Positions 21,184 through 58,213 of a stretch of 64,000 nucleotides of DNA are shown piece by piece. This DNA is from Phyllosticta citribraziliensis. Lineage: Eukaryota. The DNA lies in contig NW_027117342.1 in the NCBI RefSeq assembly GCF_038025025.1, forward strand, positions 1,116,001-1,180,000, in the 5' to 3' direction. The first letter of the stretch is position 1. Every line of letters begins with the position of its first letter. The notes under the pieces were generated by a model that worked only from the letters and a program-made list of their open reading frames with translations, was not told the DNA's origin and searched no databases. Both the position numbers and the translations under genes were made by a program.

Positions 21184-21927
21184 ATGTCCCACCACTGCCA
21201 CGACGAGCATTCGGGCCACGGCCACGGCGACCACGATCATGACCACGCGCACGACCACTCGGACGACATTACGCCGGCGCTGCAGTCGCTGCTGTATGAG
21301 CAAGTCGACTTTGGCGCCGTCAACACGCTGAACGAAGCGGAACCGCGCTCAGGAACTGCCATTCTACAAAAAACATGGGCCCAGCGGCTCGAGTCGGAGC
21401 CGGAACTGCAGAGTGACGCGGACGAGCAGCTGCTCATGTTTGTACCGTAGGTCCACATTCCACAGCGTAGCTTGATAGAGGCTAACGAGATGAACAGCTT
21501 CACCGGCCAAGTGCGCCTGCACTCCATCCTCCTCCGCACATCAACGACAGACTCGGCGCCGCGCACGCTCAAGCTCTTCCTCAACCGCGACGACCTCGAC
21601 TTCAGCACAGCCTCAGACCTCGCACCGGCGCAAACGCTCGAGCTCTCGCAGACCAACGAGGTGCAAGACCTCCCTGTCAAGCGCGCGCTGTTCAACACGA
21701 CGCGCTCGCTGACGCTCTTCTTCGAGGACAACTTTGGCGACGGCGACGAGGACGTCACACGCGTCAGCTACTTGGCCTTCAAGGGCGAATTCATGCGCCT
21801 GAATAAGGAGCCTGTCAATTTTCTTTACGAGGCGGCTGCTAACCCTGGGGATCACAAGGTCAAGGGGACGGCGAGCTTGGGCATGGGGAGTAGCATTGGT
21901 GGGCCAGGTGGTAGAGATGGAATGTAA
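21184..21927 (+). CDS. PITH domain protein (PITHD1-like) with His-rich N-terminus
   Basis: LQSDADEQLLMFVP|FTGQVRL..YEAAANPGDH; intron 21447-21497. Confidence 0.88.
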
Positions 21928-53643: not shown

Positions 53644-53715
53644 GCCCCTTTAGCTCAGTGGTAGAGCGCGACACTAGTAATGTCGAGGCCATCGGTTCGA
53701 CTCCGATAGGGGGCA
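53644..53715 (+). tRNA. tRNA-Thr (anticodon AGT)
   Basis: Acceptor stem GCCCCTT/AGGGGGC, D arm GCTC..GAGC, anticodon arm CGACA-CTAGTAA-TGTCG, T arm ATCGG-TTCGACT-CCGAT; T5 at 53760-53764. Confidence 0.97.
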
Positions 53716-54722: not shown

Positions 54723-55499
54723 TCATACGACGCGTTTGACCTGTTTGGCAACGTGAGTCGCTCTCTCATTTGTGATGCGATGCTGAAGTTAGCGTACCTC
54801 GAAGAATCTCTTCAACCACCAGACCTGGAAAATGCCCTCCCCAACCAGCACGAGGAGCTGGAAAATGCTCCACCACTTGACTCGGGCATTGGTGCTCTCG
54901 GCCGTGTTTCTGTGAACCGTTTCTCTGACCACGATGTAGCCTTGTTCGTCCTTGACCTGTGCGACGAGCTCGGAGAGTTGGCGAACTGCTTTGATTAGCG
55001 CAGATCCTTCATTTTTCCCCGTGTCCAGTATGCTTACCCTCTTTCTCGAGCGGATCCTGAGGAGCCTCAGACTCTGGAACGTAGACAATCCCGTGCACGT
55101 TGAAGGAGACCTCCTTTGTGTTTGCCGACCAGTGCTCGTTGCTGAAGCAATAGGTGTACGTGCCATCCATCTTGGCCACGAAAGAGTGGTCGCCGGAGGA
55201 AACACTGCGCTCGTGGACTTGCATGCCGTTGCTCGGGTTTTGAATCTAAGGCGTGTCAGCGCATTGATCAGTGTGGAGCAGGTGAACCCTTCTCAATGTA
55301 CCCAAAAGTCAATGTCGAGATTTCCGCTGCCGCCGAATTCGCGATCTCCGACTTGGAATGTGACCGTCATCGTGTCGTCGACATGGAGCTGTTCGTGGAA
55401 ACACTCGCGCGTATGTGCCTTGAGCTGGATGTTGTGGGCAGACGTCGCGCTGAACATGCAGCTCAGAGCCGCGACGGCGGCGGCGGCGGAGAAGCGCAT
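54723..55499 (-). CDS. emp24: p24/GOLD family ER-Golgi cargo receptor Emp24
   Basis: Signal peptide, RECFHEQL, YTYCFSNE, HRNTAESTNARVKWWS, C-terminal LKRFFEVKRVV; three introns. Confidence 0.92.
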
Positions 55500-56610
55500 T
55501 TCGCGGAAGCCAATTGGCAAGGAGGTGAACGCAAAGGTTGGGCAAGTGGTGGATCTGGACAGCTAGCAGGTCGGGGTGTTGATCGTTGATCCCTACAGCT
55601 CGACGCGGCAGTTTCGGAGACAAGTGTCTCCGCCGCCGATCCCTGTCGCAGATCAAAAACCTCACTTCACGCCATCGGTAAGACTCTTTCGCTACACCAC
55701 GTTGCCATCGTTTCGACCTCAGCCTTGTCGTTCGCTGGGAGACGGGTCGAAATCCACCATGGACAAATTATGAGTTAAGTTGGGGCAAACTGCCCGCTGA
55801 GCAGCTTCCCAGATTTCATCGCAACTTTCAATACGTCGGTCGTCGTCAGACGATGTGATCTTTCCTCGGTTTTAAATCCTCCAGTCTTTCGTCTTCGCAG
55901 CCACGAGTCATCCTCAGTTTTTCATTCAAGTCTTCTGATCTTTCCACTTTCAAGCCCAAGGCTGTATCGTGGCGGCTCGAGGCTATATTTTTCATTCTCA
56001 AGGTCCACTCTTCTCCTTTGGCCCAAGCGGATATCAAAGTCAGTCTCAACTCCAAGGATTCTGGGTTGTGGCCACAGACTCGTTGGAGCTGGCTATTGGA
56101 GCAACCTCAATAACGCTCAAAATCCGAGGAGCCGCCATATCCCACGGCGGATGAACTCAAGGAGCTGTCATTGCTTTTGAGGGCGACTGTGCTGTGGGCA
56201 CGAAACCACCATGTCGCTATTCGACCTTTGAAATTGCACGACATTGGTACCAGGTGGCAAGACGGCGTGGTGCCCATGACTTCGCAAAGTTGGGGCTGCA
56301 AAGTTTTGGACTGCATGGCAAGTTGTCGTGGACGCCGTGGAGTGAAAACACGCCAAGCAGTTCTGGCGCTGATGGGATTACAGTAATAAACACCAGGAAT
56401 GGTTACGAATCTACCGCCAGGCCGTGTCGAGGGTGGGCGCAGGCGGTGCGTGGTGGGCGCAGGCGGTGCCTGGTGAGCGCCGCTCCGATTTTTGGCAATG
56501 AGGGCAACCGCCGGACCTCCCTTTATAGGCCTTAATTGCGAACAAGTATCCATCCTGACGATGGGCGAACAACTCTCCTGCATTGAGGTAATACGCATGA
56601 GGACTGGGGC

Positions 56611-56800
56611 TTCCAATATGGCGTAATGGCTTAGCATGTAGCTTGAGGCTGGATTTAGGACCGAATCACGCACCCAGTGGCGAGGCTTAGGGAACCTTCC
56701 TAGGAGGTAACTGAAGGTCCTCGGGTCGAATCCAGCTACGTCCTAGGGCTACTCCTTGACGGGGGAGAGATGTAGGTCACTGGCCCGGCCGAACTCTTTT
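56611..56800 (+). ncRNA. Putative RNA polymerase III-transcribed structured ncRNA (not a canonical tRNA)
   Basis: A-box-like TGGCGTAATGG 56619-56629, B-box-like GGGTCGAATCC 56723-56733, T-tracts from 56797, extensive internal complementarity. Confidence 0.6.
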
Positions 56801-57374
56801 GTCTTTTTGTCTCTTTTCCTTCGCCTGGTTCGCTTAGCCACCATCGTCAAGCGACGATGGTGTAGTGTTTGCTTTTGCTGCCTCCAATGCTCGACAGCGC
56901 ATGCGGGAGCGGCGACTTAGTCACGTCCACGCCATTTCGGTGTGTACACTGCCCAGATACTTTTGTACCACTTGACGTCGCCGCCCCCCTTTGCCTTGGA
57001 AAGCTTTCTATCCCATAGCAGACCGCAACAATCTCATACGTGCAGACAAGACAGCCAAGCACACCAGATTAGTCAATCGCTTTCAGTTTGTTTTGCTGCG
57101 CTGATTCCGGCCGCCTGCACACCTCATTTTATAACGTGCGAGTTTCACGTCGCCAATGGCACCCGACGACATTAGCCCGCAAGAGAAAAAGGCACTCATG
57201 AGAGGCCACCTGGTCTACTGGCTCGCCGGAGGCCCTACCTATGATAGAAGGGCAAGTAATCCTCCCCAGTTGTGTGTTTTGCGCCTGCGGCATGTCGGCC
57301 AGATGGGCACGTGATGGTGACCGCCGCCATATCAACAAACCCGACCGAGACCCTGGGCCAAACCAAACAACAAC

Positions 57375-58213
57375 ATGGACAGAGTCAAGACCTTTGTCGG
57401 CCAAAACTTCAAGACAGATCCTGAAAAATTCGGCTACTGGGAGGCATTCGGATCACTCTTGCTGACTCCATTCGAAGTGCAGCAGCGCAAGTACGCCTAT
57501 CCGAAGCCAAAGCCCGTCGACAATACTGAACCTGAAGCGACCGCCGCCAACGAGACTCCCGCTGCCACCGAGACTCCGACCGTCGAAGCGAACATGGCCA
57601 AGAAAGCCAACAACTCCAAGCCCGCCGGAGGCAAACCGGACTTCAGCTTCACCGCTGAGGAGGACGCGACGCTCAAGGAAATGAAGGACAGAGGAGACGA
57701 AATCAAGAATATTGCGAAGGCTCTCAAGAAGCCCAAGGAAGTCATCCAGAAGCGCTACGACGAGATTGCCACCCCCGCGCAGAAGGCTGCCGCCGCCAAC
57801 AACGCTGGTGAGAAGAAGGGCGAGCAAGCTAAGAAATCCCATCAAGCCACCAAGGCCAATGCGTCCAAGGGCAAAGACAACAAGGCGTCCGAAGCCAAGA
57901 AGGGTCGTGAGCCAGTCTCCTCGGCTCCCCAGATCAGCATGCCGCAGTACATCAACGGTCTACAGAATATCACTGTGTTCCCGGACGAGATGTTCAGCGC
58001 CAGCGACGTAAGTTTCAAGTTCGCTCAGCCGAATGAGCCCAATGATGGGCATGGCTAACAGGTCTTCAGCTTGTCTGGTTCTGCAACGCATTCATGTACG
58101 ACAACGAAGAGCGTTGGATTCGCCTGGCCAGCCGCTTCTACGACATCACCGGTCGTCGCATCCACCCGCATACCATCAAGCAGAAGCTGATGCAATCCGG
58201 CTTGTCGACTTGA
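57375..58213 (+). CDS. Lys-rich protein with Myb/SANT-like segments
   Basis: FTAEEDATLKEMK..IAKALKK..IQKRYDEI; second exon WIRLASRFYDITGRRI; intron 58008-58069. Confidence 0.72.

Follow-up and report, generated by a model that had tools for sequence, protein, structure and literature searches.

tRNA genes with an upstream TATA element (RF00005) combine that element with an A box, a B box, and a T-run, and all of these signals are shared by the element described here, which lies in a 64,000-nt stretch of Phyllosticta citribraziliensis DNA, positions 1116001–1180000 of contig C5 (called the window, by which the whole stretch analyzed is meant). The tRNA-Glu-type heads of this genome also begin with the same 5' TCC..TA-TGG head as the element. 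Compared with tRNA genes, the element has no cloverleaf, no 3' acceptor strand, and no anticodon arm; its A box and B-box-like motif are 93 nt apart, the latter has one deviation from the tRNA consensus (G in place of T54), and its RNA is predicted to be ~250 nt long.

Helenus TRIMs, together with a tRNA-mimic family of the same genome, share a TGGCGTARTGG..GCATGT head with the element, as far as the available text on Helenus goes (PMC10886601), in which fungal members are named from Pucciniales and Agaricomycetes only (Kojima, 2024). An upstream TATA+YGCRA module is common to the tRNA-mimic family and the element, whereas the element differs from both groups in being single-copy, in lacking a primer-binding-site-like (PBS-like) motif and a closed cloverleaf, and in having no body similarity to them. 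AfuSINE2 of Aspergillus fumigatus, in the accessible part of its description, likewise has a tRNA-related, non-cloverleaf head joined to an unrelated body, measures 140–493 bp, and is in some cases single-copy (PMC5063351); the element departs from it by the absence of a target-site duplication (TSD), by showing no LINE-like tail, and by conservation above flank level.

The pri-milR-1 to -4 of Neurospora crassa are, like the element, Pol III units that lie between genes and have TATA-like elements and poly-T, and milR-4 has a tRNA precursor as its source, according to the available sections of the report; the element differs in having no long Dicer-type hairpin (PMC3547838). RNase MRP (RF00030) and nuclear RNase P (RF00009) may resemble it in P2a–P3 geometry, in AGnnAU before P2b, and in a possible P4 with fitting offsets, while the element misses CR-I and most of CR-V and obtains no Rfam score. 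"Conserved intergenic structure 2" of Pezizomycotina, averaging 144 nt and without known function, is stand-alone and single-copy, like the element, in the portion of the paper that is accessible (Gao, Jones and Rivas, 2021; PMC8216456); likened by description only, it may be a family that matches the element. A literature search reaching few subscription papers found no description of the element, which is probably a new variant among tRNA-headed Pol III RNAs and a small RNA without earlier description.

Judged by its sequence, the locus is very probably a genuine Pol III transcription unit, and the element is probably a conserved Pol III gene, uncatalogued in Rfam, whose RNA would end at the T-runs. 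It sits inside a 1.65-kb gap between two divergent protein genes of a 31.35-Mb, 22-contig genome and is upstream of both, by ~1.0 kb for emp24 and by 0.35 kb for the Myb-like ATG:

54789..55499, (-) strand: emp24/gp25L/p24 gene, left neighbor (PF01105, E = 3.8e-23; ATG at 55499; the left end is the limit of the scanned exon)
57156..58058, (+) strand: fast-evolving right neighbor, with relatives that bear the name of Myb-like domain proteins (its ATG is at 57156, and its right end is approximate)

Four relatives of the right-neighbor protein were found; the three that have names come from Phyllosticta and show 97, 66, and 42% identity. A 20-nt tandem duplication (95% identical, 56432–56471) lies in the gap upstream of the element.

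All 16 motifs quoted in the earlier note are present where it had placed them, including its A box TGGCGTAATGG at 56619, its B-box-like GGGTCGAATCC at 56723, and its T-runs from 56797. The signals that bear on transcription are as follows:

56524..56541, (+) strand: upstream Pol III module, TATAGG (TATA at 56524) then TGCGA (at 56537)
56552..56611, (+) strand: conserved 5' segment, which would make up the initial 60 nt of the transcript from a presumed start (one listed X6 substitution in 61 nt)
56612..56637, (+) strand: tRNA-like head, acceptor-like TCCAATA plus a D-arm-like part, with the A box TGGCGTAATGG at 56619–56629
56658..56668, (+) strand: putative degenerate B-box-like GGACCGAATCA, read off the sequence and spaced from the A box as in ordinary tRNA genes
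56723..56733, (+) strand: B-box-like GGGTCGAATCC, which overlaps the robust helix on its 3' strand
56797..56817, (+) strand: T4-T5-T4 terminator cluster in the TTTTG..TTTTTG style, as after the genome's tRNA genes

Internal A and B boxes, oligo-T downstream, and a TATA module upstream make up the arrangement of a type 2 Pol III gene. For A box, B box, and T4 together, 150 Markov simulations predict 0.07 occurrences per 64 kb with both strands counted, and three such sites occur in the window, namely the tRNA-Thr gene, the element, and a weaker one at 21909. The 21909 arrangement is probably a chance match of the kind expected per window. In a pattern search of the genome, the element was the sole match with its A–B spacing. 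The TATA+YGCRA combination occurs at two places in the window (both strands, 128 kb), one of them at the element, and the module recurs in 13 of 19 tRNA-mimic units and in the SRP gene of the same genome; G56528 is A in three relatives, so that their TATA element reads TATAAG. Because the SRP and U6 genes begin ~30 nt past their TATA, the transcript probably starts near 56552, ~28 nt after the TATA; the 5' boundary first drawn at 56611 is probably wrong, since it falls near 56552 when judged by the upstream module and by the extent of the conserved block. A long 5' segment is plausible in view of TATA-to-A-box distances of -34 to -83 among the other Pol III units for which a TATA was scored in this genome; against the reading stands the -95 of the element itself, which is longer than any of these. 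Among 43 Pol III-type units, the best matches to the head were four tRNA-Glu-type heads, followed by the tRNA-mimic family.

Two observations touch on these signals. In an intron-containing tRNA gene (L036, G000:C6:1367133), which may serve as a precedent for long 5' leaders, a TATA-like element precedes the A box by ~95 nt and the leader is hairpin-forming. Directly past the terminator of the element lies a perfect 10-bp hairpin (56839–56862), which overlaps a second A-box-like TGGTGTAGTG and has one pair broken in three relatives.

Known RNA families were searched with three search windows against Rfam at E <= 10, which returned just chance matches far below gathering scores. The U6, U4, SRP, and MRP genes sit at other loci, and the RF01502 covariance model for SRP RNA gave no match at the element; among snRNA and snoRNA features, no Sm site, C box, H box, or Rfam match was found in it. 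The earlier remark that no cloverleaf closes is confirmed: ARAGORN calls no tRNA here (only the tRNA-Thr at 53644), and the complement of the acceptor-like TCCAATA is absent downstream. Other identities were tried and rejected. For a C/D snoRNA, the CTGA at 56711 is CCGA in three relatives; a permuted or long-intron tRNA (anticodon-like CTGGA/TCCAG stem, 70-nt insert) was rejected for want of a T arm and a 3' acceptor; and for a telomerase template, TTAGGG occurs just once, with no 1.5-repeat template. An HDV-like ribozyme of the fungal variant, whose hallmark in the accessible text is a nested double pseudoknot with P1.1, gave no Rfam match and by eye has no CC in the would-be L3 loop (PMC5640933).

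The element is single-copy in the 31.35 Mb, with one match each in DNA searches with the whole unit and with its 5' part, searches that are word-based and that old copies can escape. Allowing three mismatches, a pattern for the 3' block gave one extra match, which was unrelated, compared with two control matches. No direct repeat of >= 6 nt was found at either candidate 5' edge, and the PBS-like motif present in 15 of 19 tRNA-mimic units is absent at the element. The earlier suggestion of a tRNA-derived SINE thus finds no support as a mobile element, given one copy per genome and the lack of a target-site duplication; being single-copy, the element is not an active SINE. The body of the element has no similarity to the 43 Pol III-type units (nhmmer, best E = 0.27).

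The tRNA-mimic family emerged from a genome search with an A–B box pair pattern, which gave 65 matches compared with 10 in the control, 19 of them belonging to this one family. It comprises at least 19 units on nine contigs (L043–L046, L054, L057, L058, L065–L067, and L078–L086) that have an extended anticodon-like stem and, past the terminator, the PBS-like motif, which may be read as a primer-binding site. The family is Helenus-like, in an ascomycete. Several of its units are miscalled as tRNAs by ARAGORN.

Part of the stretch is contained in 11 of 17 listed sequencing runs, which carry seven organism labels and one metagenome label and none of which is recorded as RNA. The conservation comparison took in four of the 17, including X6, X8, and X9, of which X8 covers just 56982–57225 and is uninformative for the element. 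Run X6 differs from the window at 67 of 1080 nt, with four listed substitutions in the 262 nt of 56551–56812 and 63 in 818 nt of flank (p = 9e-5), figures that rest on 40 of 212 recorded differences, assumed complete for X6 up to 56925; within the listed range alone, the counts are 4/262 nt inside and 36/564 nt outside (p = 0.0015). Run X9 holds two versions, or haplotypes, told apart by depth and overlap. The first shows 4/190 differences inside versus 68/968 outside (p = 0.008), and the second is weakly more conserved inside (13/190 versus 47/397, p = 0.08); the haplotypes appear to share single records over 56516–56626 and 56757–56808. The strongest conservation is found at the 3' end:

56757..56808, (+) strand: most conserved 3' block, comprising AGAGAT-GTAGG (CR-IV/P2b-like), GTCACTGG, and the first two T-runs

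No X6 change is listed for this block, and the X9 record of its 52 nt does not differ from the window. The conserved region as a whole spans from about TATA+28 to the T-runs and includes the body beyond the boxes, and the element occupies the same position in relatives; past the terminator (56817–56863), conservation is not significant (p = 0.25). Constraint on promoters may contribute as well, since the locus lies between two divergent genes. With the full signal set in the right order and conservation in excess of the flanks, the reading as a Pol III unit is strengthened, and the earlier proposal of a Pol III ncRNA gains further from the TATA+YGCRA module. Homologues were sought farther afield with exact patterns, which miss diverged homologues: viral contigs gave 2 + 0 matches, both read and unrelated; all 23 matches in metagenome contigs were unrelated, as was the one match in prokaryote genomes. 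Within the collections scanned by these low-reach patterns, the element is known from close relatives only.

The description of the RNA as highly structured did not stand, as the minimum free energy of 56611–56800 is -63.6 kcal/mol and that of shuffled sequences is -63.6 ± 4.3 (z = 0.01). The longer 56552–56800 segment gives z = -0.47, strong helices are in no excess over 200 shuffles (3 versus 1.8; 9 versus 6.8), and a hand-picked 96-nt core reaches z = -3.1, a value to be set against the -2.5 to -2.8 reached by 96-nt flank windows. RNAs that fold together with proteins often fail the shuffle test, and for this reason a z near zero removes support from a structure without disproving it. The strands discussed below are the following:

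56647..56656, (+) strand: 5' strand of GGCTGGATT/AATCCAGCT, the sole robust helix, partner at 56728–56737 (probability 0.89–0.98 in three fold windows)
56674..56681, (+) strand: CCAGTGGC, 5' strand of a possible 8-bp pseudoknot, partner at 56776–56783 (no listed X6 change in either strand)
56569..56578, (+) strand: ACAACTCTCC, 5' strand of a possible closing stem, predicted partner at 56764–56773

Of the nested helices proposed earlier, the GGCTGGATT/AATCCAGCT helix held, with a pairing probability of 0.93 in the 56611–56800 fold, while GTAGCT/GGCTAC (0.05) and AGGACC/GGTCCT (0.0) did not. In the same fold, the claimed CTCCTT/GGGGAG helix came out halfway (0.51), and CTTAGG/CCTAGG is not formed in the register given for it (0.0). 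The complementarity behind the proposed pseudoknot is real and is at chance level, 84% of shuffles holding a helix as strong; pseudoknots are unscorable by the pairing-probability program. T56712 is C in three relatives, a change that abolishes a pairing competing with the pseudoknot strand and is therefore compatible with the pseudoknot, but is no covariation. The closing stem pairs with probability 0.88 in the 56552–56800 fold and 0.09 when the fold is extended to 56866, and the longest perfect helix in the element has 10 bp.

These results bear on several rival explanations. The block between emp24 and the Myb-like gene might act at the DNA level, as a TFIIIC/Pol III-bound or promoter block that serves as a boundary or cis-regulator with the RNA as a by-product. 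TFIIIC-bound boundary sites exist in yeasts, and the position of the element upstream of both genes, its retention at that position in relatives, and the lack of a folding signal above shuffles are all consistent with such a role; the conservation, however, takes in all of the body as well as the 3' block, far outside the boxes, and its edges match the start and the terminator, which makes this explanation unlikely. A tRNA-derived SINE or Helenus-type element that survives as a neutral, slowly decaying relic would explain the head like that of the 19-unit tRNA-mimic family and the shared upstream module, and single-copy degenerate AfuSINE2 are described in the accessible part of the Aspergillus fumigatus paper (PMC5063351). 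It is nevertheless improbable given substitutions three- to five-fold below the flanks in two comparisons, one copy with neither a TSD nor a PBS-like motif, and a body unlike all 43 units. The same small probability attaches to a precursor, made by Pol III, of microRNA-like small RNAs, comparable with Neurospora milR-1 to milR-4, whose genes are of the same intergenic, TATA-like, poly-T kind in the available text (PMC3547838): the 56552–56800 fold is a predicted irregular rod joining both ends, but no long hairpin is present, and the conservation covers 260 nt and is not confined to a 20–25-nt pair.

The remaining rival is a third RNase P/MRP-type RNA, derived from that lineage with P2, P3, and CR-IV retained and the A box placed in the 3' strand of the P3 loop, for which the modeled evidence leaves a quite low probability. 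The 250-nt RNA would be a catalytically dead scaffold or decoy, or the core of a new RNP, without the CR-I/CR-V core and binding Pop1 and a Pop6/Pop7-type Alba pair; a version with a 310-nt, very divergent RNase P RNA extending to 56860 is extremely improbable. Two features belong to these versions:

56577..56634, (+) strand: segment drawable as P2a + P3, a post hoc lead (7-bp lower stem with six pairs, 9/14-nt internal loop, GAGG/CTTC upper stem)
56840..56860, (+) strand: CR-V-like ACCATCGTCAAGCGAC, beyond the predicted transcript and relevant solely to the RNase P-like version

The apparent likeness of 56577–56634 to P2a and P3 of RNase MRP agrees with several features of the MRP consensus (Rfam's), namely CCTGC, a GAG at the start of the upper stem, and an AGAGAT that precedes GTAGG, the P2 partner, and the P3 loops have 9 and 14 nt at the element versus 9 and 13 in the genome's MRP. 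In yeast telomerase RNA, a P3-like module reportedly acts in the way proposed here for the scaffold. A 29-nt MRP P2a–P3 consensus motif scores 11.5 here, among the top three of 128,000 positions, compared with 9.0 in the genome's own MRP, although the element is absent from the 11 window matches of a model built on that MRP's P3 and is not among the top matches of a 13-nt CR-IV motif. GCTTGA (56641–56646, 6 nt after P3) can pair with TCAAGC (56847–56852, 7 nt after the AC at 56840) at the offsets of MRP P4, yet this partner lies beyond the conserved T4/T5 runs, where conservation is not significant. In RNase P, the CR-I consensus has GGAA and a bulged U and pairs with CR-V as P4; the element has GCATGTAGCTTGAG in its place and a 6-bp helix without the bulged U, and P8/P9 are absent. 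A descriptor made of P2, P3, CR-IV, and a positioned 6-bp P4 is satisfied by the candidate as well as by the MRP control and has 28 matches in 125.6 Mb of simulated DNA; it is post hoc, composed after the candidate had been seen, and the number of chance matches expected in 320 nt, 8e-5 for the full descriptor, becomes 1.4e-3 and 2.7e-3 with one motif set dropped and 0.28 with geometry alone. At E <= 10, the element has no match to RF00009 or RF00030, and the forced P/MRP fold lies 24 kcal/mol above the minimum. If the P3-like reading were true, the RNase P/MRP lineage would gain a new member that is non-catalytic, and the shared Pop proteins a new partner; P3 is a hub for Pop1, Pop6, and Pop7 in the accessible text of PMC4536320.

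This rival also draws on the genome's own inventory. Two Rpr2/Snm1-family genes are present, from which the genome should have an RNase P RNA, and the RF00009 search located none (15 of 1791 candidates scored; no control detected). A CR-I pattern search of the genome gave nothing, 20 of 47 matches to a looser CR-I pattern were scanned with none proving to be RNase P RNA, and patterns from CR-I to CR-V gave 3 + 4 matches, at control level and none recognized by Rfam; a P3-based pattern had 79 genome matches. From 82 CR-I/CR-V pairs filtered to eight, four loci were scanned, none recognized by Rfam. A candidate for the unlocated RNase P RNA, chosen out of these 82 motif pairs, is G000:C7:1577129–1577420 on the (-) strand (loci L160/L195), in which a CR-I-like/CR-V-like pair forms a P4 of 8 bp that includes a bulged U, CR-V is followed by a P1-like helix of 9 bp, and downstream come a B box and T-runs; Rfam gives it no score. 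This contig C7 locus fits CR-I, CR-V, P4, and P1 better than the element does, which counts against the RNase P/MRP-like reading of the latter.

The explanation put forward here, which we hold at about even odds, is that the element is a single-copy, tRNA-headed Pol III gene kept by selection on its RNA, with a predicted non-decoding, protein-binding role. In such a gene, TBP/TFIIIB would bind the observed TATA+YGCRA module and set a start near 56552, and TFIIIC would bind the internal A and B boxes, as in type 2 promoter biology. Pol III would halt at the T4/T5 runs and leave a ~250-nt RNA with an oligo-U end. Because it has no acceptor stem, the RNA would escape tRNA-type trimming and retain the 60-nt 5' segment; the fold predicted for it centers on the GGCTGGATT/AATCCAGCT helix and has the 5' end paired with the 3' end. 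In the weakest step of the scheme, the RNA would neither decode nor catalyze and may act as a scaffold or a decoy toward proteins involved in handling Pol III transcripts. If transcribed, the element adds to the signs of a layer of non-tRNA Pol III genes outside Rfam in Phyllosticta-like fungi and offers a testable case of a tRNA-headed unit turned into a conserved single-copy RNA gene.

The other small RNA genes of the genome include the SRP gene on contig C7 (133.6 bits), the RNase MRP RNA on contig C2 (L003:1501–1954, (-) strand, 454 nt), and two diverged U4 snRNA genes (L008 and L009, 100.9 and 84.5 bits). The MRP RNA carries a ~200-nt insertion in domain 2. The U6 gene (L010, G000:C13:588044–588142 and downstream) appears to hold a spliceosomal intron (GTAAGC ... 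CTAAC ... TAG).
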